A DNA stretch of 64,000 nucleotides from an uncultured bacterium. GTDB lineage: Bacteria > Fidelibacterota > Marinisomatia > SCGC-AAA003-L08 > JACNLC01. The first letter of the stretch is position 1; the number at the start of each line of letters is the position of its first letter. Below are positions 6,380 to 38,770 of the stretch, piece by piece. The position numbers and the translations under genes were made by a program. The notes beneath the pieces were generated by a model that did not search any database, was not told the origin of the DNA, and worked only from the letters and a program-made list of their open reading frames with translations. The DNA lies in contig CAYPCW010000002.1 of assembly GCA_964409335.1 (NCBI GenBank), forward strand, positions 26,637-90,636, given 5' to 3'.

Positions 6380-6414
6380 CCATCCACGCACCGGTACCAA
6401 CCGCAGGGATAAAC

Positions 6415-6882: not shown

Positions 6883-7091
6883 TTAAACCACGATGCGAAC
6901 GGCAAGTTGGGTGGCTTTCGACGCTTCGCCTGATCTTACCGGTTTTCCAATACCTAAAAATCACCCATCAGACTCCACCCGCCATTTTTCCAGAGTCAAT
7001 TCGTTCTGTCTGCAATACATTCATCAAGTCATTCACCCATCACCGCCGCAAAACACCGTAAATTTTCCCCGTTAAAGAAAGCTCCAAAACC

Positions 7092-9374
7092 ATGAGTGTA
7101 CATCCTTTTCAGACGTTAAATTGCCGGGTTATCAAAAACACAGTCATTTCCTTGTTAATCAGTGCGTTTCTGTTTACCCAAAGCAGCCGTGTCGATGATT
7201 CGTGGATGCTCTATGATGATACGGAAGTGGCCGTGGTTCATATCACTATTGACCCGGCGGTTCTCCAATGGATTTATGAAAATCCCGACAGTGACAGTCT
7301 GCATGTGGCACAGCTTCACTTTACTAACTCTCAAATTGATGAAGATGTAGTTGATATTGGTTTTCGACTCCGTGGTAACACTTCGAGGGATGCGCTGAAA
7401 AAGTCGTTCAAAGTGTCTTTCAATACCTTTGTACCGGGACGTGAATTTCACGGAATAGACAAAATGAATCTCAATGGCGAGCACAATGATCCGTCGATCA
7501 TGCGGTCAAAGATCTGCTGGGATATGTATCAGCGAGTGGGGATGAACGCTTCCCGGGCTGCTCACACTGCGGTGTACATCAATGGTGAATATTATGGGCT
7601 TTACATTTCCGTTGAACACATCGATGACGAGTTTCTGAACAAAAACTTTGCGGATGATACCGGAAATTTGTGGAAATGTCTCTGGCCCGCAGATCTCTCC
7701 TACCGTGGAGACAACCCGGAAAACTATCTGCCCTGGATTGATGAAAGCCGTCCCTACGAACTCACCACAAACGAAGACGGCAATGATTTCACGCAGCTTG
7801 CCCGACTCATCTCCGTCATCAATAATACTCCCGACAACCTGTTCGCAGATTCACTGGAACAGGTGCTGTATGTGAATGAAGTCCTGAAATATATGGCAAT
7901 GAATGTCCTCACCGGGAACTGGGACGATTATTGGTATCTCATGAACAATTACTATCTGTACTATGAACCGGACGCAGATAAATTTCACTGGATTCCCTAC
8001 GATTACGATAATTCGCTGGGCATCGACTGGTTCAATATCGAATGGTCTCAATCCGATCCCTATGCATTCCCGGTGATGAATAATGATCCCCGGCCGTTGA
8101 TAGAACGGCTCCTTGCCAACACCCGGTACCGGAATCTCTACACCCGTTTTTTATCCTTCTTCCGGGATATGATCGATTCTCCCGACTGGCAGCCTTACCT
8201 AGAGGATTTTCGAACGCTCCTCTATCCATGGGCAGAACCGGATCAGTACCGTCGGATGGATTATGGTTTCGACGATGAGGGCGGAATGGATGATTTCTTG
8301 AATTCGTACGATGCGAATCACTACGAAAATCTCCACGTCAAACGAAGCCTTGTGGAATTTCGGGACATGCGAATCAATTCCCTGCAGGGTGTTCTGAATT
8401 ATATTCCCACAGCGCCCCTCATTTATGACTGGCAGATGGTTCCCGCCTATCCGTTACAAGGAGATTCATTGATGATCTCCGCATCTGTATTTGACCCGAA
8501 CGGGGTGACATTTGTGCAATTGCAATTTACTCCGGCAGGCGGATCCCAGCAATTATTCAGTCTGCAGTACAACCCTGTACCGGGCGCCACAAAAGTTGAA
8601 GAAGCCGACCGGTGGCACGTCCAAATTCCATCATTGCCTGAAGTGAATACTGCGCAACTCCGGTTTGTGGCGATGGATAGTAACGGACAAATTGCATTTT
8701 ATCCGCCAACCGGAACGATCGTGATCACCCTTTTTAACAGCGTTGAATCCGGACTACGGTTGAACGAGCTGATGGCATCCAACTCCATAACCATCGCTGA
8801 TGATGAGGGTGAATTTGATGACTGGGTTGAACTGTACAATTTAAGCAATCATCCCATCGTGCTGGACGGACTGTATCTTAGTGACAATCCAAATAATCTC
8901 ACCAAATGGCAATTCCCCGCCATTCAACTTGAAATCCCCCGGGCAGACTATCTGATGGTTTGGTGCGATGAAGATGAATCACAGTTGGCATTGCATACCA
9001 ATTTCAAGCTCAGTGCCGGAGGAGAATTTGTGATCATCACTGCAACAAATGGAACGGATATCGTAGATCTGATCGAATTTGATGCTTTAGGGACCGATGT
9101 CTCCTATGGTCGATTTCCGGATGGCACCGGTGAGTGGGTGATTCTGCCTGAAGCATCTCCGGGTAGCTCAAACGACCTTGGGATAGGATGTGGTGTGGGA
9201 GATCTCACCTGCGATGGCAGCGTGGATGTTTTGGATATCGTCGGGCTGCTAAGCTGGATATTAACCGGCTACGCCCCGGATCCGTGGGAGTTCCTCTCGG
9301 CTGATGTGAATACCGATGATGAGATGGATATTTTGGATGTCGTCATGATAGTGGATATGATATTGAACGGGTGA
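7092..9374 (+). CDS. secreted CotH-family protein with lamin-tail (LTD) domain and C-terminal dockerin
   Basis: Signal-like N-terminus followed by a CotH-like region (about aa 40-400: HFTNSQIDEDVVDIGFRLRGNTSR, KMNLNGEHNDPSIMRSK). The LTD-like segment is about 8752-9170 (LRLNELMASNS...EFDDWVELYN...GEFVII). Two dockerin Ca-binding repeats lie at about 9198-9371 (GDLTCDGSVDVLDIVGLLSWIL and ADVNTDDEMDILDVVMIVDMIL). Confidence 0.8.
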   Translation: MSVHPFQTLNCRVIKNTVISLLISAFLFTQSSRVDDSWMLYDDTEVAVVHITIDPAVLQWIYENPDSDSLHVAQLHFTNSQIDEDVVDIGFRLRGNTSRDALKKSFKVSFNTFVPGREFHGIDKMNLNGEHNDPSIMRSKICWDMYQRVGMNASRAAHTAVYINGEYYGLYISVEHIDDEFLNKNFADDTGNLWKCLWPADLSYRGDNPENYLPWIDESRPYELTTNEDGNDFTQLARLISVINNTPDNLFADSLEQVLYVNEVLKYMAMNVLTGNWDDYWYLMNNYYLYYEPDADKFHWIPYDYDNSLGIDWFNIEWSQSDPYAFPVMNNDPRPLIERLLANTRYRNLYTRFLSFFRDMIDSPDWQPYLEDFRTLLYPWAEPDQYRRMDYGFDDEGGMDDFLNSYDANHYENLHVKRSLVEFRDMRINSLQGVLNYIPTAPLIYDWQMVPAYPLQGDSLMISASVFDPNGVTFVQLQFTPAGGSQQLFSLQYNPVPGATKVEEADRWHVQIPSLPEVNTAQLRFVAMDSNGQIAFYPPTGTIVITLFNSVESGLRLNELMASNSITIADDEGEFDDWVELYNLSNHPIVLDGLYLSDNPNNLTKWQFPAIQLEIPRADYLMVWCDEDESQLALHTNFKLSAGGEFVIITATNGTDIVDLIEFDALGTDVSYGRFPDGTGEWVILPEASPGSSNDLGIGCGVGDLTCDGSVDVLDIVGLLSWILTGYAPDPWEFLSADVNTDDEMDILDVVMIVDMILNG

Positions 9375-9520
9375 TCGTAAACCTGAAGAATTCCTTTTAT
9401 CTGAACAGGGCAATCAGGATTTTCACCACAAAATACCATGAATGGTTAATGGAGGCATTCAGCCCTGGATCATCGGGATATCAAAAGGATCAGATGAAGG
9501 AAATCCCGCAAGAAATATAT

Positions 9521-9577
9521 CCTGTTTGCCATCTAAATAGCATCGACAAAAACCCTTTTTATCCTGTGGCAAACAGG
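9521..9577. repeat. 11-bp perfect inverted repeat with 35-nt spacer
   Basis: CCTGTTTGCCA (9521-9531) pairs with TGGCAAACAGG (9567-9577). It lies in the intergenic region between the CotH-family gene and the M15 peptidase gene. No T-run follows. Confidence 0.6.
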
Positions 9578-9626
9578 CTGAACATGGTAACTTTTTAAAC
9601 CGAAAATAACCAGGAAATCTAAATTT

Positions 9627-10376
9627 ATGAACAGAAAAACGTTTATCAAAGGCATCACGGGTGCCGGAATGCTGGCAGCCATACCTAAATTTGTTTGGGC
9701 ACAAACCCCTCAACCCGCCAGAAAATATTCCATCATGGAATTGGTGGGTAAAAGGAAACCGGAACTCTTTGGCACCGAGGTCAAACTTCGAAAGCGGTCG
9801 TTTGAAGCGTTTTCCGACCTTCAAAATGAGGCATTTAAAGTCGGGATCAATGTGTATTCCCAGTCCAGTTATCGGAGTTTTGATCACCAAAAACAAATAT
9901 GGAACCGGAAAGTGAAACAGTTTTTGCAAACCGGAATGACACCGGAACAGGCGATTAATGAACTGATAAAAAGTTCGACTATTCCCGGGACGTCCCGCCA
10001 TCACTGGGGAACTGAACTGGATTTTATCGATATGGCCGTCCAGCCACAACCTCTCGATCGCCTCGAAGTTAAAAATTATAAACCCGGGGGTGAATACGAG
10101 CATCTGCAGTACTGGCTGTTGGATAACGCTGAAAAATTCGGTTTCTTTCTCACCTATACGGACGACCCCAACCGCAAGGGCTTCCGATATGAACCCTGGC
10201 ATTACAGTTTCGCTGAAGAAGCGAATCCAATATTCAAGGAATTTATCAACATCAACTGGAAAGAACATGTAACCGATATTTCAATATCCGGTAGTCATCT
10301 GTTCACTCCGGAATTTCTGGACAAATACTACCGCGAGAACATATTGGGAATTCCTGCCGCCTTGTTGAAATTGTAA
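9627..10376 (+). CDS. M15B/VanY-type D-alanyl-D-alanine (LD/DD) carboxypeptidase family protein
   Basis: 249 aa with a signal peptide (GAGMLAAIPKFVWA) and the zinc and catalytic motifs SRHHWGTELD and EPWHYSF. Confidence 0.8.
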   Translation: MNRKTFIKGITGAGMLAAIPKFVWAQTPQPARKYSIMELVGKRKPELFGTEVKLRKRSFEAFSDLQNEAFKVGINVYSQSSYRSFDHQKQIWNRKVKQFLQTGMTPEQAINELIKSSTIPGTSRHHWGTELDFIDMAVQPQPLDRLEVKNYKPGGEYEHLQYWLLDNAEKFGFFLTYTDDPNRKGFRYEPWHYSFAEEANPIFKEFININWKEHVTDISISGSHLFTPEFLDKYYRENILGIPAALLKL

Positions 10377-22792: not shown

Positions 22793-22983
22793 GTTTACTC
22801 ATCATTTTCAAGTGAAATCTATATGAAACGGAAAGCCAAAGTTACCACTAATTCACGGATCGGACGGTGGAAAATTCCACGGGTAATCCACAGATCCCGG
22901 CCTGTTTTCATGATCTCACTATGAACGGATATTCGGTTTTCAAGTGCTATGAAATATGGCTGATAACCGTTAAATTAAATACA

Positions 22984-24387
22984 ATGTATGCGCTGCAAAT
23001 CATAGATGACGATGCGAATGTTCTCCATGCGCTCTCGGAGTTCTTTGAGCAAGAAGGCTACGAAGTATTCAAATATAAAAATGGCGAAGAAGCTCTGTCT
23101 GCCATCAATACGGATCTCCCTAACGTCGTATTATTAGATTTGAAACTCCCCGGCATGGACGGATTTTCGATCCTTCATAGAATTAAACAATCCCACCCCG
23201 AAATAGAAGTCATTATCATCACCGGAAACGTGGATGTCATGTCCGGTGTGAAAGCGATGAAGCTTGGTGCAATTGATTATGTGACCAAACCATTCAATCT
23301 TGATGAGGTGAGTGTATTGGTCGGGAAGGCTATATCAGCCCAAAAGCAGTATGAACAACTCGTGTATCTCCAAAAAGAAAAAAAACTAATTTCAGGTGAG
23401 ATCATCGGTACCAGTGATGCCATGCAGAAAGTATTTAAATTTATCGATCAGGTTGCCGAATCCCCCAGAACTTCCGTATTGATTCACGGTGAAACGGGAA
23501 CCGGCAAAGAACTGGTTGTCAAAGCGATTCATTATAACAGTTCACGAGCCGACAAACCTTTCATTGAGATCAATTGTTCTGCATTTCAAAGTACACTTCT
23601 GGAATCAGAATTATTCGGGTATGAGCCGGGTGCATTTACCGGAGCAAAAAATCGAAAGAAAGGTCTGCTCGAACTGGCGGATGGCGGTTCCTTCTTCCTG
23701 GACGAAATCGGGGAAATGGATCTGGGACTGCAGGTGAAATTGCTAAAGGTGATTGAGGAACAATCTTTCCGGCGGATTGGCGGCACAAAGCAGATTAAAA
23801 TCGATACCCGGATATTAAGCGCCACTTCCAGAGACCTGGTAAAGGAGGTGGAAGAGAACCGGTTTCGCAAAGACCTTTTCTACCGGTTAAATGTGGCGTC
23901 CATTAAACTACCGCCGCTTCGGGAGCGAGGCGAGGATATTCTGCTATTGGCAGAACATTTCATTCGTCAGTATAACCGGGAGTTCAAACGCAATATCGGA
24001 GGGTTGGACCATCTGGCGATGGAACAGTTCAAAAGGTATTCATGGCCGGGTAATGTAAGAGAACTGAGAAATGTGATCGAGCGTGCAATGCTGTTTGAAA
24101 AAGGCACAATGATCCGCCCGGACAGCATTAATATTGCTGCCGCATCCGTTAAAGATCATAATCCCGCCCCATTCGAAAATAATAAAGATGATCTTGAGAG
24201 CTTATATTTGAAATTAGACATTTCAAAAGAGCGCTATACGTTAATGGATTTTGAAAAACAGCTCTTTCTTAAAGTATTGGAACTAACAAAAGGGAATCAA
24301 TCCAAAGCCGCCGGAATTCTGGGAATCTCCCGGCAGCGGATGTCCTACAGAGTGAAAGTGCTCGGTATCTCGCCGGATATTAATTAA
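22984..24387 (+). CDS. sigma-54-dependent response regulator (NtrC-family enhancer-binding protein)
   Basis: The REC domain is intact (IDDD, LLDLKLPGMDG, IIITG, VTKP). The AAA+ domain has GETGTGKE and the sigma-54 contact loop GAFTGA. A Fis-type HTH lies at the C-terminus. Start trimmed from 22867 to MYALQIIDDD at 22984. Confidence 0.9.
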   Translation: MYALQIIDDDANVLHALSEFFEQEGYEVFKYKNGEEALSAINTDLPNVVLLDLKLPGMDGFSILHRIKQSHPEIEVIIITGNVDVMSGVKAMKLGAIDYVTKPFNLDEVSVLVGKAISAQKQYEQLVYLQKEKKLISGEIIGTSDAMQKVFKFIDQVAESPRTSVLIHGETGTGKELVVKAIHYNSSRADKPFIEINCSAFQSTLLESELFGYEPGAFTGAKNRKKGLLELADGGSFFLDEIGEMDLGLQVKLLKVIEEQSFRRIGGTKQIKIDTRILSATSRDLVKEVEENRFRKDLFYRLNVASIKLPPLRERGEDILLLAEHFIRQYNREFKRNIGGLDHLAMEQFKRYSWPGNVRELRNVIERAMLFEKGTMIRPDSINIAAASVKDHNPAPFENNKDDLESLYLKLDISKERYTLMDFEKQLFLKVLELTKGNQSKAAGILGISRQRMSYRVKVLGISPDIN

Positions 24388-27794: not shown

Positions 27795-29312
27795 ATGAAC
27801 CATTCTGAAATTCAAGACACAGCCGCCGCCAACAATTTCAAAATTTCTTCCCAGGAGATATTGAACTATCTGACCGATATTATCGTTCTGTGCGATCCGG
27901 AATATACCATCAAGACAAGTAATCGATCGGCAAATGTGATCTATGGCGTGGGAGACTCTGTCGTCGGGGAGAAATGCTACGAGGTCATTCGGGGTAAGTC
28001 CGGTCCTTGCGAAGACTGCCCCTTGCAGGAGTCTATCCGTGACCGGCGATTGATCCCCATCGAAAACTATGATGAACGGATCGGGAAATACATGGAGGAG
28101 AAAACGCATCCGGTCATGGATCCTGAAGGGAAACTGGTGGGATTTGTGTTGGTGGTAAAGAATGTGACTCATGACAGGGAGATTAAAGACCTCTCTGTTC
28201 AGACAAAAAAATTATCCGCCATCGGACGGATCAGCGCCGGCGTCGCTCACGATTTTAATAATTTACTCCAGGTCGTCCTGGGACGGGTGAGGCTTCTTGA
28301 AAAACTGGTGAAGGATAAAAATATTATTGAACAATTGCGGATCATAGAATCAGCAGCCAATAACGGCGCTGCCACCGTAAAAAAAATGCAGGAATTCACC
28401 AGAATCAGCAAGGATGATCATTTGCTCCCGGTGAATATCAGCAATTTAATCAAAGATGCCGTTCAACTCACCAGTCACGAACTTCGGGAATTCAGCGAAC
28501 GAAACGGAATTCTGGTCCAAATCGTTGAGAATATTGACGATGACCTGTTTATAAAAGGAAACGGCACCGACCTGCAAAATGCCGTCACCAATATTATTTT
28601 TAATGCTGTCGATGCGATGCCTGATGGCGGCGTATTGTTCATCAAATTACATCTCGTTGAAGACACAGTTACGATTTCCTTTATTGATACCGGGATCGGA
28701 ATGACAGAGGAAACAAAAGAGCGAATATTTGATCCATTTTACTCAACGAAGGGGGTGGAAGGAAACGGTCTGGGGATGAGTGAGGTTTATGGGATTGTCA
28801 AACGATCCCAGGGTAAAATTTCCGTAATGAGTGAGCAGGGGAAAGGAAGTACCATTCTCATGGAATTCCCACAGACATCAGATCGGGATCAACCGGCGGA
28901 ACAACCGGTGATCGTCCCGAATGGATTATACCGGATTCTCGTCATCGACGATGAACAATTTGTTCTGAATGTCATTGAGGATTTACTCACCGATCTGGGA
29001 CACATGGTTTATGGATTCACATCCGCGAAACAAGCGTTGGAAAAATTGCATGAGACAGAATACGATCTGGTGATAACCGATTTAGGCATGCAGGAAATGA
29101 CCGGTAAAGAGGTCGCCGAAAACGTGAAACGATTCTCACCCCAACTGCCAGTGATTCTGTTATCAGGTTGGGAGGTAAATCTTCAGGAGGACATAGAACT
29201 GGGAAGTGTCGTGGATTTCAGTATCACCAAACCCTTTCAAATGGATACTATTCAGCAGACGATTCATAAAGCCATAACCAAATATCAGGATCGGGAAGAC
29301 CCTGAATTATAA
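27795..29312 (+). CDS. hybrid sensor histidine kinase (PAS-HisKA-HATPase-REC)
   Basis: The PAS-like N-terminus has a C-x10-C-x2-C motif. The H-box is AHDFNNLL, the N-box NIIFNAVDAM, G1 DTGIGM and G2 GNGLGM. The C-terminal receiver is intact (VIDDE, LVITDLGM, LLSGW, ITKPF). Confidence 0.9.
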   Translation: MNHSEIQDTAAANNFKISSQEILNYLTDIIVLCDPEYTIKTSNRSANVIYGVGDSVVGEKCYEVIRGKSGPCEDCPLQESIRDRRLIPIENYDERIGKYMEEKTHPVMDPEGKLVGFVLVVKNVTHDREIKDLSVQTKKLSAIGRISAGVAHDFNNLLQVVLGRVRLLEKLVKDKNIIEQLRIIESAANNGAATVKKMQEFTRISKDDHLLPVNISNLIKDAVQLTSHELREFSERNGILVQIVENIDDDLFIKGNGTDLQNAVTNIIFNAVDAMPDGGVLFIKLHLVEDTVTISFIDTGIGMTEETKERIFDPFYSTKGVEGNGLGMSEVYGIVKRSQGKISVMSEQGKGSTILMEFPQTSDRDQPAEQPVIVPNGLYRILVIDDEQFVLNVIEDLLTDLGHMVYGFTSAKQALEKLHETEYDLVITDLGMQEMTGKEVAENVKRFSPQLPVILLSGWEVNLQEDIELGSVVDFSITKPFQMDTIQQTIHKAITKYQDREDPEL

Positions 29313-29353: not shown

Positions 29354-30640
29354 ATGAAAAATAATCCCACACCCGAAAAAAAGCGGATATTGGCATTATT
29401 CAGCGAACATGTCTCAAAAGGTAAAGCCCGGTTTTTTCAAAAGTACCACATGAACTTTGTCATGGGTTCCCGTGAAGATGCCGTGATACGGGACATTGAC
29501 TCAACCCTTCAACTCATCAATTTACATTGCAATGGCGGCGTATTTAATCTGGGACATCGGAATCCGGAGATCATCGGCGAGTTGAAAGCTGCGTTGGAAG
29601 ACACCGATATCGGCAATCATCATCTGATGAGCAGGTATCGGGCAGAGCTTGCGGAAAAAATTGCCAACACCATGCCCGGAGATCTGAATATCACCATCTT
29701 TGGTGTCAGTGGCGGGGAAGCGGTGGATCTGGCGATAAAGACAGCCCGGGCGTATACTTCCCGAAAATCGATTATTTCCATAACCGGCGGTTATCATGGT
29801 CATACCGGGCTTGCCCTCTCCACGGGCGATCCGAACTATATAAAGCCATTCGGTTCCAGACTTCCCGGGTTTATCCAGGTGCCGTTTGAGGATATTGCAG
29901 CCCTGCAACAAGCCATTCAATCTGATGCTGCTGCGGCTGTCATCGTGGAAACCGTTCAGGCGACCGCGGGTATCCGGATTCCCTCAAAAGCATATCTGCA
30001 AATGGTTCGAAAGATCTGCGATCAAAACGGTGTATTATTGATCATGGATGAAATTCAGACCGGCCTTGGGCGCACCGGGAAATTGTGGGCATTTGAGTAT
30101 TTCGATATTATCCCGGATATGGTCGTACTGGGGAAAGGACTTTCAGGAGGGATTTATCCCATCTCGGCAACGGTACTTCGCAAGCCTGTCGGTGCCGTTT
30201 TTGACTCTCATCCATTCAGCCATATATCCACTTTTGGCGGCAGTGAATTAGGCTGCAGGGTCGCCGGCAAAGTCCTGGATATTTCCACCTCACCGGAATT
30301 TTTGCGCCATGTCCGTGATCTTGGGGACCGGTTTCGCACGGAACTCAACCGCTTGTGTCAAAAATACCCGCGATTTTTTGTGGAAATTCGCCAACTTGGT
30401 CTTATGATCGGATTGAAATTGAAAAATCAATCCGCCGGTCCGGCGCTGACAAAGGCCGCATATGACCACGGACTGCTGATCGTTTTTGCGAACAATGATC
30501 CGTCGGTTTGTCAATTCCTTCCACCCCTGACTCTGAAGACGGATATGATACCGGACATAATATCCAGACTCGATGCCTCATTGAATTCAGCGAGGAAATG
30601 GTCCACGGTACTGGAATTGAAAAGGAAACTAATAATCTGA
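29354..30640 (+). CDS. class III PLP-dependent aminotransferase family enzyme (aminotransferase or phospho-lyase type)
   Basis: 428 aa: GGYHGHT, LIMDEIQTGLGRTGKLWAFEYF, and the PLP-lysine context VLGKGLSGG. Confidence 0.85.
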   Translation: MKNNPTPEKKRILALFSEHVSKGKARFFQKYHMNFVMGSREDAVIRDIDSTLQLINLHCNGGVFNLGHRNPEIIGELKAALEDTDIGNHHLMSRYRAELAEKIANTMPGDLNITIFGVSGGEAVDLAIKTARAYTSRKSIISITGGYHGHTGLALSTGDPNYIKPFGSRLPGFIQVPFEDIAALQQAIQSDAAAAVIVETVQATAGIRIPSKAYLQMVRKICDQNGVLLIMDEIQTGLGRTGKLWAFEYFDIIPDMVVLGKGLSGGIYPISATVLRKPVGAVFDSHPFSHISTFGGSELGCRVAGKVLDISTSPEFLRHVRDLGDRFRTELNRLCQKYPRFFVEIRQLGLMIGLKLKNQSAGPALTKAAYDHGLLIVFANNDPSVCQFLPPLTLKTDMIPDIISRLDASLNSARKWSTVLELKRKLII

Positions 30641-30664
30641 ATTTTCGATTCCCATGGAAGTAAA

Positions 30665-31597
30665 TTGAATCATTCCCCCAACATTCAACAGGTATTGGAA
30701 TCTTTTGAAAAGCAACTTCTTCCTGCGGAATTTATCAGTGGTTTTTTCGGGGCGTCTGTAATTGGCTATGGAGAAATTTCATCCGTGCTGGCATTGCAGG
30801 ATCTACCGGGTCTTGCCCTGAAACGAATGCCCTTATTTACCTCGAGGGATGAGGCTGAACAATACATCCTGATTTACCATGACTATTGCCGGTTATTGAA
30901 AGAAGCGGGTATAGTCCTGCCCGAAGATTCCACCTTCATTCTTGAAATCCCGGGTCGTCCGGTGGTGTTATACCTTCAGCAACGGGTGTTTGCCTCAGAA
31001 AAATTTGTCCATCATCTAATCCGTCAATGGTCTGAAGATCATATTAGGATTGTGTTCGAACGAATTCTCAACCACATTCAGCTCGTCTGGCATTTCTCTG
31101 AGAATCGGGCGCCGGGACTTCGGATTGCTTTAGATGCCCAACTGTCCAACTGGGTCGTCGAAGGCGATGCGGGGAACGGCGTTATTTATTATGTTGATAC
31201 CAGTACACCTTTGTATCAGGTTGAGGGTAGAGAACAATTAAATCCGGAACTGTTTCTGAAAAGTGCGATGCCGGGATTGAGATGGGTCATTCGTAAATTC
31301 TTTATCACCAATGTGATCAACAGATACTATGATAAACGATCGGTACTCATCGATCTGACTGCAAATCTGTATAAAGAACAATGTCCTCATTTAATCCCGA
31401 TCATGCTTAAATTGGCTAACGGTCTGCCCGGACTTTCTCATACCCCAATATACGCTGATGAGGTCAAATCATATTATAATGAAGATAGGCGGATCTGGGA
31501 AATAGTACAGTTTTCCCGAAAACTCCATCGGTGGGGGGTAACGAAACTAAAAAGAGGGAGATATGAATTTATTTTACCAGGAACCATACACCGATAA
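30665..31597 (+). CDS. orphan protein with protein-kinase-like motif series (atypical kinase-fold candidate)
   Basis: 310 aa with a TTG start. In kinase order it has a Gly-rich loop IGYGEISSV (GxGxxSxV), a beta3-type Lys in LALKRM and an acidic helix DEAEQY. These are followed by a D-x4-N catalytic-loop-like LDAQLSNW and a metal-binding-like YYVDTS. Confidence 0.4.
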   Translation: MNHSPNIQQVLESFEKQLLPAEFISGFFGASVIGYGEISSVLALQDLPGLALKRMPLFTSRDEAEQYILIYHDYCRLLKEAGIVLPEDSTFILEIPGRPVVLYLQQRVFASEKFVHHLIRQWSEDHIRIVFERILNHIQLVWHFSENRAPGLRIALDAQLSNWVVEGDAGNGVIYYVDTSTPLYQVEGREQLNPELFLKSAMPGLRWVIRKFFITNVINRYYDKRSVLIDLTANLYKEQCPHLIPIMLKLANGLPGLSHTPIYADEVKSYYNEDRRIWEIVQFSRKLHRWGVTKLKRGRYEFILPGTIHR

Positions 31598-31608
31598 TTC
31601 CGGAGCAT

Positions 31609-32937
31609 TTGATGTGTGATACATTTGTAGTGCTGCCCGAAAACACCGAAAACGGGTCGATTATTTTTGGGAAGAACAGTGACCGGGAGCCAAACGAGGC
31701 TCAGTCCGTCGAGACCCATCCGGCGAAAGATTACCCGCCAGGTGAGCCGTTGGAATGTTCATACCTGACCATCCCGCAGGTAAACCATACCCATCGCATT
31801 CTCATCAGCCGGCCCTTCTGGATGTGGGGTGCGGAAATGGGCGTGAATGAGCATGGGGTAGTCATCGGAAATGAGGCTGTTTTTACGCGGATTCCCTGTC
31901 ATATCAAAACCGGGTTGACGGGCATGGATCTCCTTCGCCTCGCTCTGGAACGTACAGATACCGCCAGATCGGCAATGAACATGATCACCCATCTGATTGG
32001 TGAGTACAACCAGGGCGGCAACTGCGGGTACACCAGTAATTTATTCTACCACAACAGTTTCATACTCGCCGACTATTCAGAAGCCTGGATTCTTGAAACG
32101 GCAGGTAAATACTGGGCTGCAAAGAAAGTGTCAGGATATCAGGCAATCAGTAACCGCCTGTCTATCACGAGGGATTTTGATCTGATCCATCCCGAGGCAA
32201 TTTCCTATGCGGTCGCCAGAGGTTGGATAAAATCGACAAAAGACTTCAATTTTGCAAAATGTCTTTCTGAACCCGTGTACACCCGTCTCACCGGGTCCCG
32301 CACACGATTGGATACCGCACAATGTTTGCTGAAGGATACTATCGGAAATTTCACAATCAGCACGGCGATGGCACACCTCCGCAGCCACGGAAGCGACCCA
32401 TACGATCCCAAAGGACAACCCTTGATGGACAGCATTTGCGCGCACTCTGCAAATCCGGTAACCCGGCACGCCGCTCAAACCTGTAACTCAATGATCGTGG
32501 AGTTAAAAGATGGTTTGATGACCATCTGGACAACGATGACGGCTGCCCCCTGTACATCTGTATACAAACCCCTTTGGCTCGAAGCAGTGCCGGATCAGAT
32601 CCTGAAGGATACGGCTGCCGCACATTTTTCAGGTGATTCACTATGGTGGCGGCATGAAAAACTGCACCGCGCTATACTGCTTGATTATCGTCGCCGGATC
32701 ACCCCGGTGATCGACAAGTTCCAGGCCATGGAAAAAAAATGGATGTCCCGGATCAGCCCTTATATGTCATCCACCGAAAAAATGACTCTTTCAACGCATG
32801 CCATAGAGGAAACCCGGCAGACCACCGGAACACTCACTGAAAAGTTGGAATCGGAACCCAAAAAACGATATCCCGGGATCGTGTACCGGTCATATTGGTC
32901 CAGGCAAAACAAAGCAGCGGGTCTGTTGATACGGTGA
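31609..32937 (+). CDS. secernin-like / C69-family N-terminal-nucleophile (Cys) hydrolase
   Basis: 442 aa starting MCDTFVVLPENTENGSIIFGKNSDREPNEAQ. Cys2 follows the initiator Met and the GKNSDR-x-PNE string matches the secernin/C69 Ntn signature. Confidence 0.75.
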   Translation: MMCDTFVVLPENTENGSIIFGKNSDREPNEAQSVETHPAKDYPPGEPLECSYLTIPQVNHTHRILISRPFWMWGAEMGVNEHGVVIGNEAVFTRIPCHIKTGLTGMDLLRLALERTDTARSAMNMITHLIGEYNQGGNCGYTSNLFYHNSFILADYSEAWILETAGKYWAAKKVSGYQAISNRLSITRDFDLIHPEAISYAVARGWIKSTKDFNFAKCLSEPVYTRLTGSRTRLDTAQCLLKDTIGNFTISTAMAHLRSHGSDPYDPKGQPLMDSICAHSANPVTRHAAQTCNSMIVELKDGLMTIWTTMTAAPCTSVYKPLWLEAVPDQILKDTAAAHFSGDSLWWRHEKLHRAILLDYRRRITPVIDKFQAMEKKWMSRISPYMSSTEKMTLSTHAIEETRQTTGTLTEKLESEPKKRYPGIVYRSYWSRQNKAAGLLIR

Positions 32938-34562
32938 AATGCAGATTCGACAAATTTCTTATCCTTCTTTCCATACTTTTTTATTCAGCTGATATCGTAT
33001 TTAATCAGGTCGTCATTACTGAAGTTCTGTTTGATCCGGACTGTCCCCTTTCCAACCAGGAATTTGTAGAAATCCTCAATCTCGGACCCGATCCTGTGGA
33101 TATCACCGGTTGGAGGTTGGCGGATAATCATTCAACGGATGATCTTATATCAGATTTTTCATGGTTGGGCGTCGGTGAATACGGGGTGATCCTCGAACAG
33201 GATTATTCCGGATGTTTTGATAGTGTATTTCCCGATGAAGTCAATTTTATTTACGTGGATGATAACAGTATCGGAAACGGACTGGGAAATACCACAGACA
33301 TGGTTCAAATTATAAATGCAGAGGGAGATACGATTTCCATAATGAGTTGGACATCCGGCATTACCCACGGGCATTCTCTTGAGAAAGTCGTCCCGGAATA
33401 TGACAATTTATCCGGAAACTGGAGAGTCAGCATTGCCCCCCTTGGAACACCAGGCAGTGAAAACAGTGTCGCATCTCACCTGATCGATATCGGCGTCGAT
33501 TCTTTATGGATAGCGCCGGAGCATCCGGACGATGGGGAACCATTTGAGATTATGGCATCCATTACCAACTTCGGGCTCCTTCCATCTCAGACGCAAATCC
33601 GGGTAAATGATGAAACCGCTGCCTTCCTTTGGGTTGACTCGGTACAAACCATCGTGTCTCCGGTAATAATTACACACCGGGCTTCCGGCGTTCACCCCTT
33701 TATTGTCAGTACTCTGACGGAGGAGGATTACGACCCGGGCAACGATTCCCTTTCCATCCAGGTGATCGTTTCATATGAGTATGGAGACATGCTCATCAAT
33801 GAAATCATGTACGATGCGCTGATCGGCCAACCGGAATGGGTAGAGATCGTTAATGTTTCCCAATCCGCAATTTCATCCTCAGGATGGCGTATCAATGACC
33901 GGGACAACTTCCCTGCGGTGGGAATATCCGCGGCAGCCTCAATCCCTGTATTCGGTTTTGATGTTGTTTCGAAGGATTCGCTGTTTCCCGGGTCGGCGAT
34001 TCAAAGCAGTTTTCCGGTGTTGAATAATACGGAGGATCAGGTGTATTTATTCGATCCCTCCGGTAAGATGATCGACCATGTATTTTATCAATCCTGGTGG
34101 GGCGGGGGTGACGGATTCTCCCTTGAACGGATCACTCACTTCCTGGACTCAAATAATCCTGAAAACTGGGGAACGTGTGTTTCAGGTTCAGGGTCTACAT
34201 CCGGATACCAGAATGCGCTTTTCGTGGGTGAGATCATCTCAGAAGGGGTAATCACCGTAACCCCAAACCCATTTTCCCCGGATGATGATGGATTTGAGGA
34301 TGAGACGATCATTTCATTTCATGTTCCTTTTACCCAGGCGTATATTCATGCGGTGATATACGATGTTCGCGGACGGGAGATCGACACTTTATTTGACCAG
34401 ACATCTGCAGCCGAAGGAATTTTCAGATGGGACGGAAAAATGACAGACGGTTACCGTTGCAAAACAGGTCAGTATATCCTGGTCATGGAGGCGACGAATA
34501 GTTTTACGAGATCGGTTTGGAAGGGAAATTCCCGGATCATCATCGCCAGTCATTTGAAATAA
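32934..34562 (+). CDS. secreted protein with two lamin-tail (LTD) domains and a C-terminal FlgD-Ig/T9SS-like beta-sandwich
   Basis: Start trimmed to the GTG at 32934, a GTGA overlap with the upstream stop. This yields the signal peptide (M)KCRFDKFLILLSILFYSA. LTD strings are VVITEVLFDP...EFVEILN and MLINEIMYDA...EWVEIVN. The tail reads VTPNPFSPDDDGFEDETIISFHVP...GQYILVMEA. Confidence 0.7.
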   Translation: MKCRFDKFLILLSILFYSADIVFNQVVITEVLFDPDCPLSNQEFVEILNLGPDPVDITGWRLADNHSTDDLISDFSWLGVGEYGVILEQDYSGCFDSVFPDEVNFIYVDDNSIGNGLGNTTDMVQIINAEGDTISIMSWTSGITHGHSLEKVVPEYDNLSGNWRVSIAPLGTPGSENSVASHLIDIGVDSLWIAPEHPDDGEPFEIMASITNFGLLPSQTQIRVNDETAAFLWVDSVQTIVSPVIITHRASGVHPFIVSTLTEEDYDPGNDSLSIQVIVSYEYGDMLINEIMYDALIGQPEWVEIVNVSQSAISSSGWRINDRDNFPAVGISAAASIPVFGFDVVSKDSLFPGSAIQSSFPVLNNTEDQVYLFDPSGKMIDHVFYQSWWGGGDGFSLERITHFLDSNNPENWGTCVSGSGSTSGYQNALFVGEIISEGVITVTPNPFSPDDDGFEDETIISFHVPFTQAYIHAVIYDVRGREIDTLFDQTSAAEGIFRWDGKMTDGYRCKTGQYILVMEATNSFTRSVWKGNSRIIIASHLK

Positions 34563-34604: not shown

Positions 34605-35648
34605 TTATCTGAGCGAAAAGCTGACGCCAAGATTAAAGGCGTCATAATCGCCTTTGTTGTACTCACCCTGAAGGGAAAGGAACAATAATTTCATACGCAC
34701 ACCTGCAGTGATTCTGGATTCGTTAATGCCATCCATGGTGAATTGAATAGGCTCATCTTCCGTACTTTCCCCGGATTGCCAGATATAATTCACGTCAACG
34801 CTGGTGGTTTCAATGCCATATCCGCCATAGACCGTCAGGAATAACAGTTTTTTACTCATCTGTATATTGGTGATGGTATTTTCCATGGATATGATATCGC
34901 CAATGTCCAGATTGGTCAAATAATATCCGGCTGAAATTCTCGGCAGGATTCCGATATTAAAGGGAATGAATTGATTCAGTCCGATTTTACCGCCAAACCC
35001 CACCATTGAAACCTCCCCGATATTCTCAAGAGTAGTCTTGGGTAGCATGCGGACCATGACATCAATATCCAAAGGTAATCCGACGGATACCTGTGGAATA
35101 ACGGCCTCCATGGTATTGAAGTCAAATCCACCCGGCATGACGAGGGTAAGTTCTGACGCTATTGGACCGCTGAGTGCCTGGGCATCTGTATGGGGTATCG
35201 AAAATTGATCTTCCAATGCACCGGTTACATAATCCTGGTTGGGTGTGAAAGTCTTTGAGTCGGTGGATCCGAATATGGTGGATACGGTGCGGTCCTGTTG
35301 GTAAAGCATGTCGCCATCCAGTTGCAGATTCGAATTAATCCCCCCATAGGTGAACGGAATGTCAATCTGATCAGGAATATAAAACTCAAATGTCAGATCC
35401 CGGTCCGGTACAGGTACAAACGCAAGGTTTGCGGTGATATCGAATCCGAGAAATTTATGGGTTGCAGCCGTATAGAATGTGCCTGAATTCAAGGCAGTCC
35501 CGAACGACGAAACCAAAGGAAGTGAATATCCGCGGGCATTTTGCTCTCCCATATTTTGAATATTCGACAATAAATCTTCTGTAAATCCAGGCGTAAAAAG
35601 GCTGAAAATCGTTGCAAGTACTAACGATCTTTTAAATCGAATTAACAT
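34605..35648 (-). CDS. outer-membrane beta-barrel-like protein of unknown function
   Basis: 347 aa with a signal peptide (LVLATIFSLFTPGF). Amphipathic strand patterns alternate through to the C-terminal ...AFNLGVSFSLR. I could not name a family. Confidence 0.5.
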   Translation of the reverse strand: MLIRFKRSLVLATIFSLFTPGFTEDLLSNIQNMGEQNARGYSLPLVSSFGTALNSGTFYTAATHKFLGFDITANLAFVPVPDRDLTFEFYIPDQIDIPFTYGGINSNLQLDGDMLYQQDRTVSTIFGSTDSKTFTPNQDYVTGALEDQFSIPHTDAQALSGPIASELTLVMPGGFDFNTMEAVIPQVSVGLPLDIDVMVRMLPKTTLENIGEVSMVGFGGKIGLNQFIPFNIGILPRISAGYYLTNLDIGDIISMENTITNIQMSKKLLFLTVYGGYGIETTSVDVNYIWQSGESTEDEPIQFTMDGINESRITAGVRMKLLFLSLQGEYNKGDYDAFNLGVSFSLR

Positions 35649-35757: not shown

Positions 35758-36708
35758 ATGAATACAAACCAGGATTCTGATCTGAAATTATCACCAGAAG
35801 ATGTCCTCCGGGATTTCCCCTGGATCATGGAGAAGGACCGCCTGTTTATCGCCTCTGCAGACTACGACGGTTTGATCTGTGCCGTGTATTTACACCATGT
35901 TTTACAGTGGCGGCTTGCGGGATTCTATGATCTGTCCACTATCTGGATTTCCCATGAGGGTACTCGAAACCGGGACAAGGTGATATGGGTGGATCTGAAT
36001 ATACTCCCCAGGCAGGGAAAAGCCATCGGCGGGCAGATCATCTCCATTGATGGCGAACTCCCCGCAGGATTCAGTTCGTCCTGCAATCCCAATATTTTGA
36101 TGAAATTAACGGCAGGAGATTTTCAAAAAAAATATCCTTTCTCAACGCTGCTCTTTTTATTCTGGCTGCATCGATATTTACCAACTCTCAATGATTTGTC
36201 CCGAATGTTGATCTTAAATAGCGATGCATCGTGGTTGAAATATCAGAATTATCCTGAAAATTCTAAACGGTGGATGACGATTTTAAGCGAATATTCCTGG
36301 GACGTCCTTTTTCACCGGGCTAACTCTGCCCGGTTTGAAAACAATATCTATTCGGGATTGTATCCGCATCTGAAAGAAACCGGAGCCGGTCTTACCCGGG
36401 GGAAACTATCCGGTAAGTTTAAAAATCGGGGTTCCTGCCAGATCCAAATAAATCCGGATTGGGACACGGATATCATCTATCGTTTGTTTGCCCTGATCGG
36501 CAACGCCACCGGATGGACACCTCCGGGACTGCCCCCATTTGAAAAAGTGATTGAAGGAAATCGCCACAAAATCAAATTAACCGCCGTTATGAAGGAAGGA
36601 CTGAATGCATTTTTAAAGGCAAACAAGGTATTTTCTTATGCGATAACATCCCCGGAAACGTTAAATTTTACATCATTCGAATCGGTAAAAGGATCCGTGA
36701 CCCAATAA
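35758..36708 (+). CDS. hypothetical protein, translationally juxtaposed to pabB
   Basis: 316 aa with no signal peptide. Its stop TAA abuts the pabB ATG (TAAATG). The only motif-level resemblance is a DHH/RecJ-like motif-I string, FIASADYDGLICA, which is weak. Confidence 0.5.
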   Translation: MNTNQDSDLKLSPEDVLRDFPWIMEKDRLFIASADYDGLICAVYLHHVLQWRLAGFYDLSTIWISHEGTRNRDKVIWVDLNILPRQGKAIGGQIISIDGELPAGFSSSCNPNILMKLTAGDFQKKYPFSTLLFLFWLHRYLPTLNDLSRMLILNSDASWLKYQNYPENSKRWMTILSEYSWDVLFHRANSARFENNIYSGLYPHLKETGAGLTRGKLSGKFKNRGSCQIQINPDWDTDIIYRLFALIGNATGWTPPGLPPFEKVIEGNRHKIKLTAVMKEGLNAFLKANKVFSYAITSPETLNFTSFESVKGSVTQ

Positions 36709-37929
36709 ATGGACTCCCTTCATTCCCTCATATCCCGATATGGCGAGCCTGACGCGCTTATTGATCATCACGATCCACACTCAAATCGATATGCTATCTG
36801 GGGGTGGGATGATGTGTTTGTCATACCGGATACTGAACAATCCGTCGCAGGATTAATATCCGGATATGACGGGGTGAATTCTCTTCAAGGCAGGCTGGAC
36901 CTTTGGAAAAACCATTCGGAAAAAATTTCTGCAGTGGGCTGGGTAAGTTATGATGCAAAAAATATTTTTTACCCCAACATACCGTTTAAAAAAACGGATG
37001 GTGAAATTCCCGTGATGTGGTTTGGAAAGCCCGGCATTGTCAAAGCGTATTCGTTGGATGAAGATGTAGATGAGCGTCCCGAATCCCGGTCCGGACTGCA
37101 GGTGATCCCCGATCAGATCTCAGTAGAAACATATTTCAGAGATTTATCCACCATCCGGACTAATCTTGAGCAGGGGAATGTGTACCAGGTGAATTACACA
37201 TTTCCCAGGAAATTCAAAGTAACTGAGAATCCTTTTGATTTGTATTTAAATTTGAGAAAATCAGCCCGTCCGGCAAACGGAATGTTCATCAGAACCGATG
37301 GACTTTCAATATTATCCTTGTCGCCGGAACGATTTATCAGGACCACCGGAAGGCATATTGAGACATTTCCCATCAAAGGGACCCGTAAGCGGTGCGATGA
37401 GCCCGGGCGTGACAGAGCGCTTGCGGAAGAATTGCAAAAAAGTGAAAAAGACCGGGCAGAGCATCTGATGATCGTGGATTTGATGAGAAATGATATTGGT
37501 AAAATATGCTCCTTTGGCAGTGTAAAGGTAGACGGGCTGTTCGGTATTCATTCATTTCCCACCGTTCATCACATGATATCCAGGGTCTATGGTCTGTTGA
37601 AGCCGGATATTCGAATCCGGGATATTTTTAAAGCGGTCTTTCCCGGCGGGTCTGTCACCGGGGCGCCCAAAGAGAGTGCGATGCATATTATCGATGAACT
37701 GGAGAATTACTCCCGTGGCATGTATACGGGGAGCACAGGATATGTGACTCCGGTCGGAGACATTGATTTCAACATTGCCATTCGAACAATGACAGTAAAA
37801 AATGGGATTGGCACCTACCCGGTTGGCGGGGGAATTGTTTGGGATTCCGATCCGGTTGATGAATGGAATGAAGCCATACAAAAGAGTAAAATTCTGTCAC
37901 CCCTTATTGAGGATAAAAATGAAATTTAA
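36709..37929 (+). CDS. pabB: aminodeoxychorismate synthase component I
   Basis: A chorismate-utilising enzyme: PERFIR, DRAEHLMIVDLMRNDIGKIC, GGSVTGAPK, GMYTGSTGY. The PabB-diagnostic PIKGT lysine is present (FPIKGTRKR). It is followed by pabC. Confidence 0.85.
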   Translation: MDSLHSLISRYGEPDALIDHHDPHSNRYAIWGWDDVFVIPDTEQSVAGLISGYDGVNSLQGRLDLWKNHSEKISAVGWVSYDAKNIFYPNIPFKKTDGEIPVMWFGKPGIVKAYSLDEDVDERPESRSGLQVIPDQISVETYFRDLSTIRTNLEQGNVYQVNYTFPRKFKVTENPFDLYLNLRKSARPANGMFIRTDGLSILSLSPERFIRTTGRHIETFPIKGTRKRCDEPGRDRALAEELQKSEKDRAEHLMIVDLMRNDIGKICSFGSVKVDGLFGIHSFPTVHHMISRVYGLLKPDIRIRDIFKAVFPGGSVTGAPKESAMHIIDELENYSRGMYTGSTGYVTPVGDIDFNIAIRTMTVKNGIGTYPVGGGIVWDSDPVDEWNEAIQKSKILSPLIEDKNEI

Positions 37930-38770
37930 CCCGATCGTTTACCTGAATGGGCATTGGACAAAACAATCCAAAGCGATGATCCCGATCACTGATGGCGGAT
38001 TTTTATATGGAGACGGTCTATTTGAAACGATCCGCTTTCAGAATCGCTGCCTGTTTCGACCGGAAAACCATTTTAAACGACTCCGGAATGGAATGCAAAT
38101 ATTGGGTCTGTATCTGGAAATCCCCGACCACCAGCTAAGAGCGCTTTTGGATGAATCCATTGCCCGAAACCGCCTCGAAAACGGACTGTTGCGGGTCGTC
38201 ATTACCCGGGGGTCGATTACCACGGCGCCCTGGATTCAGTCCGGGAAGCCATCGGTGTATATTTTACCAAGGCTGTTGTCACCCGTCCCGCCATTTCCCG
38301 TCAAAATTATCTGGGTGAAAGAGACTGCTTACCCGTTAATCCGGTATAAGCCGGCAATCAAGTCCGTCAATTACCTCGGGAATATGATGGCCAAAAAAGA
38401 TGCTGAAGCGGCGAACGCCTTCGAACCGATATTCATCGATCGGGATGGATTTATCACCGAAGGCGCTATCAGAAATATTTTTTTCGTCCGGAAAAAAACA
38501 GTGGTAACTCCGGACCTCAATTTGGGTGTGCTACCCGGTGTCATGCGGGAGACGATCATCGAAGTTGTAAAACAGTTGAATCTGGATTTCCACGAAGAAT
38601 GTATCCCCCAAACTGAAGTAAACCGGATGAATGAAGCCTTTATCTCTTCAACAGGAATTGGCGTCCTGCCTTGTTATTGGGAAGGGTGGATCTCCGATTA
38701 TCAGGTGACGAATGCCATTAAAAACAGGATAGATAAAGCGTTAAGTACTCATTCTATTAAAGATGAATGA
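37919..38770 (+). CDS. pabC: aminodeoxychorismate lyase (class IV aminotransferase fold)
   Basis: Start trimmed to the ATG at 37919 (MKFNPIVYLNGHW...), an 11-nt overlap with pabB. Class IV fold strings are DGGFLYGDGLFETIR and GVLPGVMRE. The functional call relies on the pabB linkage. Confidence 0.7.
   Translation: MKFNPIVYLNGHWTKQSKAMIPITDGGFLYGDGLFETIRFQNRCLFRPENHFKRLRNGMQILGLYLEIPDHQLRALLDESIARNRLENGLLRVVITRGSITTAPWIQSGKPSVYILPRLLSPVPPFPVKIIWVKETAYPLIRYKPAIKSVNYLGNMMAKKDAEAANAFEPIFIDRDGFITEGAIRNIFFVRKKTVVTPDLNLGVLPGVMRETIIEVVKQLNLDFHEECIPQTEVNRMNEAFISSTGIGVLPCYWEGWISDYQVTNAIKNRIDKALSTHSIKDE

Follow-up and report, generated by a model that had tools for sequence, protein, structure and literature searches.

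Analysis of a 64,000-nucleotide stretch of DNA from an uncultured bacterium of the Fidelibacterota (contig CAYPCW010000002.1, positions 26,637 to 90,636; hereafter the window) revealed an operon of three genes for a cytoplasmic three-enzyme module, which is widely distributed, uncharacterised and currently mis-annotated. The genes encode a class III aminotransferase-fold pyridoxal 5'-phosphate (PLP) enzyme (AT3), a DUF6206 protein predicted to be a protein-kinase-like phosphotransferase and a secernin-like N-terminal-nucleophile (Ntn) hydrolase of family C69. The initial annotation of this DNA had already proposed a class III aminotransferase-family enzyme, an orphan kinase-fold protein and a secernin-like Ntn hydrolase, and its assignments held up: AT3 matched Aminotran_3 (PF00202; 282.6 bits against a cut-off of 30.5, E = 5.5e-84), the second protein matched DUF6206 (PF19709; 74.6 bits against 30.4, E = 9.5e-21) with a kinase fold by model, and the third matched Peptidase_C69 (41.4 bits against 23) over its N-terminal 190 residues only. 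That annotation had recognised no described pathway in the gene combination, and likewise no published account of the trio was found in literature searches on DUF6206, secernin substrates and clusters of C69 with aminotransferase genes. The best reading of the module, which we adopt tentatively and at somewhat less than even confidence, is a route of amide hydrolysis, phosphorylation and PLP-dependent phosphate elimination.

One genome per GTDB species was pattern-scanned for DUF6206 relatives, which were present in 560 species genomes. A set of 80 loci was analysed, in which open reading frames (ORFs) were called and then searched with the three window proteins; the denominators used here are the loci with enough flanking sequence for AT3 (75), for C69 (69) and for the full trio (64). 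The gene immediately 5' of DUF6206 was AT3 in 69-70 of 75 loci, C69 was directly downstream in 41 of 69 (and not adjacent in the other 28), and the complete AT3-DUF6206-C69 trio occurred in 38 of 64, the gene ends within the module often overlapping. The arrangement was found in at least eight phyla, with carriers labelled as Neomarinimicrobiota/Fidelibacterota, Desulfobacterales/Thermodesulfobacteriota, Calditrichaceae (including Caldithrix abyssi), Chlorobiota, Lentisphaeria, Gammaproteobacteria and Acidobacteria. A locus from a metagenome-assembled genome assigned to C. abyssi (L029) appears to have the AT3-DUF6206 pair. Aminicenantes occurred among the named protein matches of DUF6206, and the nearest named relatives of the window protein were from Marinimicrobia/Fidelibacterota. 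A distant branch, from Myxococcota/Polyangiaceae where named, also has AT3 overlapping DUF6206, and locus L097 of this branch carries the full trio, with a C69 protein 39% identical to that of the window. A profile search of 1.84 billion representatives gave a DUF6206 family of 760 members at 50% identity, whilst no match was obtained in 72,556 plasmids. All-against-all clustering of neighbouring ORFs identified no other neighbour family in more than 18 of the 80 loci, the largest being that of a hybrid histidine kinase.

To judge from these counts, the arrangement recurs across phyla far more than chance allows, and the co-conservation of the three families that the initial annotation had anticipated was found, including in the Myxococcota. 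AT3 has a near-obligate partner in DUF6206, also as that annotation had proposed in pairing it with a dedicated kinase. The idea of a three-gene unit survived for the AT3-kinase core but not for C69 as a constant member; since C69 was not adjacent in approximately 40% of loci, the AT3-kinase pair is taken to be the ancient core of the module and C69 its frequent third member.

The three genes share the forward strand, as first described, and the spacing of 24 nt between AT3 and DUF6206 was confirmed (the TGA ends at 30640 and the TTG begins at 30665), but the 11 nt given for the second junction is the distance to a TTG at 31609. The true start of the C69 gene is instead the ATG at 31612, leaving a gap of 14 nt, because its orthologues begin with M-C-D-T-F (20 of 20 aligned; invariant in 21 sequences) and a GGAG ribosome-binding site sits 6 nt 5' of this ATG. 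No terminator-like site was found on the forward strand within positions 29354-32937.

The PLP enzyme and its kinase partner

The best PDB match of AT3 was Escherichia coli PatA/YgjG (2e-65, 33% identity), followed by LysJ/ArgD, PigE and OAT, and the match to the phospho-lyase ETNPPL (6tor) reached 1.4e-34 only, AT3 being approximately 21% identical to ETNPPL-type enzymes. The NCBIfam equivalog scores all fell far short, to less than half of the cut-off for PatA (276 against 612) and at 276 against 410 for argD, and the PbfA model gave 209 bits against a cut-off of 525. A neighbour-joining tree, with bootstrap values computed on bipartitions, placed the DUF6206-linked AT3s in a single clade (100% bootstrap) that was sister to PatA at 87% and separate from the ETNPPL-type enzymes. 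This placement, together with the match to PatA at 2e-65 against that to ETNPPL at 1.4e-34, ruled out AT3 as a member of the known phospho-lyase clade, to which the initial annotation had suggested it might belong.

In class III transaminases, 2-oxoglutarate and carboxylate substrates are bound by a Glu-Arg gateway pair (GabT E211/R398, OAT E235/R413 and PatA E243/R426) and by a second Arg (GabT R141 and OAT R180, Lys in PatA) (PMC4244111; PMC8154272 supplement), whilst in ETNPPL the place of GabT R141 is taken by His and none of the three residues is found in the lyase PbfA (PMC8154272 supplement). Alignment of AT3 with PatA demonstrated that the PLP residues K261, D232, Y147, Q235 and T293, corresponding to PatA K300, D271, F180, Q274 and T332, are invariant in 22 family members; they include the catalytic Lys, the Asp to the pyridine nitrogen, the stacking aromatic residue and the Thr that reaches the PLP phosphate from the other subunit. 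PatA T151 is Gly in the window enzyme. The gateway pair has been lost (E243 to T204 and R426 to Q387) and the distal-carboxylate position has changed from K183 to H150, all three replacements being invariant in the 22 members and kept in the Myxococcota-branch AT3. Further substrate residues that differ from PatA are H89 (Q119), G61 (F91) and N380 (L419), conserved in 21, 22 and 18 members respectively, with the members drawn from several phyla. The aligned ETNPPL-type enzymes likewise lack the gateway Glu/Arg and the second Arg. Inspection of the active site, which the initial annotation had proposed, was thus in keeping with its suspicion of a non-transaminase, in that AT3 lacks the three residues of 2-oxoglutarate transaminases and carries His at the GabT R141 position, as does ETNPPL. 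An Arg is also absent from AT3 (sequence 'ANNDPSVCQFLPPL') at what we take to be the position of the Arg of pyruvate-type enzymes.

On the evidence of these residues, AT3 is predicted to bind PLP but to be incapable of using 2-oxoglutarate in the canonical manner, and a role as a putrescine, ornithine or gamma-aminobutyrate (GABA):2-oxoglutarate transaminase appears very unlikely because the gateway Glu/Arg and the second Arg are replaced. Such a loss would fit a keto-acid-free reaction without proving one. An ordinary putrescine, ornithine or GABA transaminase with two unrelated neighbours in a chance arrangement is effectively refuted, even though putrescine aminotransferase and ArgD are its best-scoring names in the databases, by the low equivalog scores, by the replacement of the defining Glu/Arg/Arg residues and by an arrangement that has been kept in hundreds of species. 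No AT3/DUF6206 fusion was present among 150 representatives.

For DUF6206, no sequence match was found in the PDB, even with a profile. Its AlphaFold2 (AF2) model, however, was of high confidence (predicted local distance difference test, pLDDT, 90.3; predicted template modelling score, pTM, 0.88), and a Foldseek search with this model against the PDB returned protein kinases as the top matches (E of approximately 1e-5; template modelling score, TM, 0.35-0.41), with 440 kinase chains at E <= 0.001. The sequence contains a glycine-rich loop (G34-Y-G-E-I-S39), K53, D157-x4-N162 and D178-T-S-T-P; of these, G34/G36, K53, D157/N162 and D178 do not vary among 22 sequences, and in the model they sit respectively on the beta1-beta2 loop, on the third strand, in the catalytic loop and at the DFG-equivalent position. 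The alphaC Glu, by contrast, is not fully conserved. With its kinase core intact in the model, DUF6206 is predicted to be an active phosphotransferase. Its identity as an APH-type kinase was rejected, given that there was no Pfam APH (PF01636) match and that hhalign gave a probability of 0.1% against the APH kinase of a Thioclava operon described below. Five DUF6206 relatives (P0294, P0305, P0273, P0321 and P0389) have 110-200 extra N-terminal residues that are helical by eye; no Pfam domain was detected in these extensions, and that of P0389 shows an apparent transmembrane stretch.

The secernin-like hydrolase, variant loci and flanking genes

The third protein is not a member of the NCBIfam 'C69 family dipeptidase' equivalog (41.5 bits against a cut-off of 250), it resembles the C69 dipeptidases of solved structure only very weakly in sequence (profile E = 0.005), and it also weakly matches the AAT/C45 (acyl-CoA:6-aminopenicillanic acid acyltransferase) family. 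An AF2 prediction for which C69 homologues served as input (pLDDT 88.7) had as its best PDB fold the C69 Cys dipeptidase of Lactobacillus farciminis (5iau; TM 0.72, E = 1.6e-18), followed by bile-salt hydrolases, penicillin V acylase and isopenicillin-N acyltransferase (IAT); the alpha-beta-beta-alpha Ntn fold of the model is thus closest to C69 structures. Cys2 directly follows the initiator Met and is itself followed by an invariant Asp, such that after Met removal the mature N-terminus would be Cys-Asp-Thr-Phe, and the window protein has no propeptide. The trio-linked C69 sequences have a mean column identity of 59%, and several sources call the homologues 'secernin'. Taken together, these features identify the protein as a probable Cys Ntn amidohydrolase of the C69/secernin type. 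Human SCRN3 has the same arrangement at Cys6-Asp7, where the Cys can become a glyoxylyl group (PMC9285064), and by analogy the conserved Cys-Asp N-terminus might conceivably act as a glyoxylyl-type electrophile rather than as a hydrolase. What secernins act on is itself unknown (PMC9140057).

More than 5,000 members make up the wider secernin-like C69 family, whose genes mostly stand alone or next to peptide ABC transporters; five further genomic contexts of this C69 family contained neither a kinase nor AT3. A tblastn search of plasmids with the window C69 protein retrieved Thioclava plasmids, to which a protein look-up added Pseudooceanicola; in these Rhodobacterales an operon encodes an amidase, C69, an APH phosphotransferase and an AT3, and is adjoined by a Dpp-type ABC transporter and an M81 peptidase. 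The Rhodobacterales C69 proteins are 34-38% identical to that of the window, the AT3 matches the phospho-lyase 5g4i at 1e-102 and ETNPPL 6tor at 3e-97, and the kinase and AT3 correspond to opposite ends of the fusion proteins of families PRK06148 and PRK06149, which are approximately 1000 amino acids long. By these matches, the Rhodobacterales AT3 is a true enzyme of the ETNPPL phospho-lyase type. The operon thus provides a second lineage in which a homologous secernin-like hydrolase is tied to a kinase that is not homologous to that of the window and to a lyase-type AT3 that is not orthologous, and by analogy it is the strongest, albeit limited, support for the route from an amide to a phosphorylated amine that the initial annotation had put forward. 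A search for further clusters of C69 with APH and phospho-lyase genes yielded 32 metagenome loci, none with a kinase or AT3, hence the analogue is limited to Thioclava and Pseudooceanicola; among these loci and the five contexts mentioned above, many had peptide-type binding proteins. Elsewhere, a secernin-like C69 gene of Labrys miyagiensis (L090:7001-10972) lies after a Dpp-type ABC transporter and before a Gln-synt_C glutamine-synthetase-like gene and an iron-dependent alcohol dehydrogenase, a neighbourhood which presumably resembles the gamma-glutamyl-amine pathways for amino alcohols.

There were several instances of other genes at the position of C69 and one of another gene at that of AT3. 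In L030, an Amidohydro_3 metal-dependent amidohydrolase gene follows the kinase by 12 nt in place of C69. An ABC transporter of PhnS2/PhnU2-like, small amino-phosph(on)ate type follows the kinase in three loci of related Desulfobacterales (L028:11204-14278, L054 and L076), and the best match of its binding protein and permease, albeit below the cut-offs, was to PhnS2/PhnU2, a putative 2-aminoethylphosphonate transporter. In L001/L033 (contig_7208; 5859-10047), a PFK-domain gene of approximately 700 amino acids precedes DUF6206 instead of AT3; it was rejected as a module member and read as lineage synteny, as five further loci of Desulfobacterales type also have it, there 2-3 kb upstream of modules that contain AT3. 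In L001/L033 the C69 gene consists of two overlapping ORFs, and penicillin-amidase ORFs in the vicinity are likewise broken up, which points to assembly indel errors or to a decaying module. Homologues of the PlsC-like, EamA, Amidohydro_3, His_Phos_1 and PhnS2-like genes of the variant loci were absent from the 64-kb window.

Upstream of the trio in the window is a hybrid histidine kinase gene (Table 1) that stops 41 nt before the AT3 gene and whose product is a possible regulator of the module, though its membership is uncertain. Homologues adjoin the module upstream in L004 and L017 and downstream in L002/L025, and similar hybrid kinases flank it in several unrelated loci, which could be due to chance, this gene type being abundant in these genomes. 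Further upstream, at 22867-24387 (+), lies what looks from its sequence like a sigma-54-type response regulator.

Table 1. Coordinates of the module genes and of the adjoining histidine kinase gene in the window
Feature	Position	Strand	ORF length and start	Basis
Class III aminotransferase-fold PLP enzyme (AT3)	29354..30640	+	428 aa, ATG	Pfam PF00202, alignments, neighbour-joining tree
DUF6206 protein, predicted protein-kinase-like phosphotransferase	30665..31597	+	310 aa, TTG	Pfam PF19709, invariant motifs, AF2 model
Secernin-like C69 Ntn (Cys) amidohydrolase, putative	31612..32937	+	ORF as listed 31609-32937, 442 aa, TTG	Pfam Peptidase_C69, M-C-D-T-F, AF2/fold match
Hybrid PAS-histidine kinase-receiver gene	27795..29312	+		Pfam HATPase_c, Response_reg, PAS, HisKA

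Downstream of the trio, the gene at 32895-34562 (+) encodes a lamin-tail-domain protein with a C-terminal domain of the type IX secretion system type; its TTG start, which would give a 43-nt overlap with the end of the C69 gene, has probably been placed too far 5'. A DUF6588 gene at 34605-35648 (-) is convergent to it, and both genes are syntenic in the Marinimicrobia locus L003. A gene at 35758-36708 (+) encodes a 316-amino-acid protein without a Pfam or NCBIfam match and ends exactly where a 406-amino-acid ORF (36709-37929) starts. The counterpart of this ORF in L003 is a chorismate-binding (pabB-like) gene followed by an Aminotran_4 (pabC-like) gene, and the order in L003 (unknown, pabB-like, pabC-like) is identical to that of the window ORFs 35758-36708, 36709-37929 and 37802-38770; the 316-amino-acid protein may be a partner in the para-aminobenzoate/folate branch. 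Across the whole window, no tRNA genes and no Rfam families at gathering score were detected.

Candidate chemistry and competing explanations

In the preferred reading, C69 would cleave an amide or peptide-like bond and free a vicinal amino alcohol, with a primary amine next to a hydroxyl, and the DUF6206 kinase would phosphorylate this hydroxyl with ATP. Candidate amino alcohols would include ethanolamine, (R/S)-1-amino-2-propanol, 5-hydroxylysine, 4-amino-3-hydroxybutyrate, isoserine, 2-hydroxyputrescine, serinol and sphingoid bases, with N-acyl, gamma-glutamyl or dipeptide conjugates of them as further candidates. AT3 would then form a PLP aldimine of the amine and eliminate phosphate, the resulting enamine hydrolysing to an aldehyde or ketone and ammonia. 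On this view, a PatA-like transaminase would have given rise independently to the lyase, and another family to the kinase; AT3 and the kinase would make up the obligate core, with the hydrolase as a common feeder step that in some genomes has a substitute or is encoded at another site. What is inferred in this scheme is the class of substrate, the sequence of the steps and the lyase chemistry.

A number of observations weigh against this scheme. As AT3 falls outside the known phospho-lyase clade, lyase function would need convergence, no phosphate-binding site has been demonstrated in the enzyme, and the loss of the 2-oxoglutarate residues is also compatible with a non-carboxylate transaminase, a racemase or a mutase. 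The kinase-fold match of DUF6206 is modest (TM of approximately 0.4) and its best matches are protein kinases. C69 is missing from the adjacent position in approximately 40% of loci, outside the trio its family mostly adjoins peptide-type ABC transporters without a kinase or AT3, and the Rhodobacterales analogue is confined to two related genera. The module has no conserved transporter or regulator beside it, in contrast to what is usual in nutrient-catabolic islands. Lastly, some variant loci contain genes of another kind: a His_Phos_1 (histidine-phosphatase-family) gene directly after the kinase in L019, a PlsC/DAGAT-like acyltransferase at the C69 position in the Myxococcota locus L098 (7929-8786), and a PlsC-like acyltransferase with an EamA transporter shortly before the AT3 gene in approximately 10 Marinimicrobia loci (the PlsC-like gene being, for instance, L009:6876-7598, with the same position in L034, L037, L062, L070, L073 and L074). 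The PlsC-like neighbours hint at a lipid connection that the preferred model leaves unexplained, and these variants keep a biosynthetic or lipid-linked reading alive.

Under such a biosynthetic reading, which we consider unlikely but the most serious of the competitors, AT3 would transaminate between non-carboxylate partners, from an amine donor such as a diamine to a phospho-aldehyde or phospho-ketone acceptor. The phosphorylated carbonyl would be made by the kinase or supplied by the cell, the amino-alcohol phosphate would then be N-acylated or otherwise processed, for example to an aminolipid or head group, and C69 would act as an acyltransferase or maturation hydrolase. Loss of the gateway Glu/Arg removes carboxylate recognition only and not transamination as such, and a non-carboxylate amine is already a substrate of PatA, to which AT3 is most closely related (PMC4244111). 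The phosphatase and acyltransferase neighbours, the weak match of C69 proteins to the acyl-CoA:6-aminopenicillanic acid acyltransferase family and the lack of a conserved transporter or regulator would all accord with synthesis. However, the acyltransferase and phosphatase neighbours are each found in one lineage and not in the window, the C69 model best matches a hydrolytic dipeptidase, and the replacement for C69 in L030 is another hydrolase. Moreover, the partners of C69 in the Rhodobacterales analogue are a phospho-lyase of catabolic type, an amidase, a peptide transporter and an M81 peptidase.

The absence of C69 from the adjacent position in 28 of 69 loci, and the occurrence of most of its wider family beside peptide ABC transporters or alone, could also mean that the AT3-kinase pair is functional by itself and that C69 is a general cytoplasmic dipeptidase or amidase, often co-transcribed but without a dedicated substrate link. 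This appears rather improbable, as C69 is immediately downstream in 41 of 69 loci, usually by 0-15 nt and in phyla without other shared synteny, recurs in the Myxococcota branch and is again operonic, as a homologue, with a non-homologous kinase/AT3 pair in the Rhodobacterales. The strong constraint on the trio-linked sequences, noted above, also opposes it.

It is still less probable, and would be surprising, that DUF6206 is a regulatory protein kinase or pseudokinase controlling AT3 or the hydrolase, for which its top Foldseek matches (eukaryotic-type protein kinases and not APH or choline kinases), the N-terminal helical or transmembrane extensions of some relatives and the frequent proximity of a hybrid histidine kinase might be cited. 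The PDB is dominated by protein kinases and the TM values are low, so that this ranking is not discriminating; gene ends that overlap those of a metabolic enzyme in many phyla are what pathway partners typically show, and the known precedent for a kinase with an AT3, including fusion proteins, is metabolic. DUF6206 is also small, without recognisable substrate-docking or sensor domains.

It is possible, though on balance doubtful, that the module represents an undescribed and widespread pathway with a new kinase family, a PLP enzyme that eliminates phosphate or is otherwise non-transaminating and evolved independently from a PatA-like ancestor, and a secernin-type Cys-Ntn enzyme that acts on an unrecognised metabolite class. 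If this were true, it would provide the first metabolic context for secernin-like proteins. Were the preferred route correct, DUF6206 (a family of approximately 760 representatives at the 50% identity level, relatives of which occur in 560 or more species genomes) would gain a role as a metabolic kinase family, a second independently evolved non-transaminase lineage would be added to the class III aminotransferases, and a testable biochemical context would become available for the secernin-like C69 proteins, including the human homologues, whose substrates are unknown (PMC9140057). The annotation of DUF6206-linked AT3 genes as putrescine or acetylornithine aminotransferases is very probably wrong. 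The carriers, among them Marinimicrobia, Desulfobacterales, Calditrichia, Aminicenantes and Myxococcota, are abundant and mostly uncultured degraders of marine water columns and sediments, hence the pathway may process a common but overlooked compound of relevance to nitrogen and phosphorus.

Relation to known systems

Each of the enzymes has characterised relatives from which it differs. The C69 Cys dipeptidases (Lactobacillus PepD type, 5iau) and the secernins SCRN1-3 share with the window protein an Ntn-hydrolase fold and a Cys directly after the Met, and its Cys-Asp dipeptide matches Cys6-Asp7 of SCRN3 (PMC9285064); its sequence similarity to the dipeptidases is, however, very weak and it has no propeptide. 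PatA/YgjG (PMC4244111), the closest characterised relative of AT3, shares the PatA-type N-terminal helix region and the absence of an Arg at the OAT R180 position, but keeps E243 and R426 where the window enzyme has T204 and Q387, uses 2-oxoglutarate and has no kinase partner. PbfA, the (R)-1-hydroxy-2-aminoethylphosphonate ammonia-lyase, provides a precedent of another kind: like AT3 it has the class III fold and lacks Glu/Arg/Arg, and although it was annotated as a transaminase it is a 1,2-elimination lyase that was recognised by its gene context and by the loss of these residues (PMC8154272). In contrast to the proposed reaction, PbfA eliminates water or ammonia from a phosphonate and not phosphate from a phosphoester; it also has no kinase partner and belongs to a different clade.

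At the level of the whole module, the Rhodobacterales operon has the same three enzyme types, a homologous C69 and short intergenic gaps, but its kinase and AT3 are non-orthologous to those of the window, the hydrolase comes first in the order, and it has an extra amidase and transporter, the operon itself being uncharacterised. A further likeness, in logic and as an analogy only, is found in ceramide catabolism, in which acid ceramidase, a Cys Ntn hydrolase, cleaves an amide, sphingosine kinase phosphorylates the amino alcohol and the PLP-dependent sphingosine-1-phosphate lyase cleaves the phosphate ester; all three enzymes are from different families, and the cleavage by the lyase is a retro-aldol reaction.

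By analogy, the module would work most like the ethanolamine, hydroxylysine and aminopropanol kinase/phospho-lyase pairs. Veiga-da-Cunha et al. reportedly described in 2012 the pairs of ethanolamine kinase with ETNPPL (AGXT2L1) and of hydroxylysine kinase (AGPHD1) with PHYKPL (AGXT2L2), and split or fused bacterial homologues are represented by NCBIfam PRK06148 and PRK06149. As in these pairs, an Aminotran_3-fold PLP enzyme stands beside a dedicated kinase of protein-kinase-like fold, and, as in ETNPPL, the 2-oxoglutarate-binding Glu/Arg/Arg are missing and His occupies the GabT R141 position. The module is nonetheless not a member of these families, because both the AT3 clade test and the APH test fail: the window AT3 lies in a separate clade that is sister to PatA, and its kinase is a DUF6206 protein without detectable sequence relation to APH kinases. 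The module also differs from these pairs in having C69 as a frequent third member.

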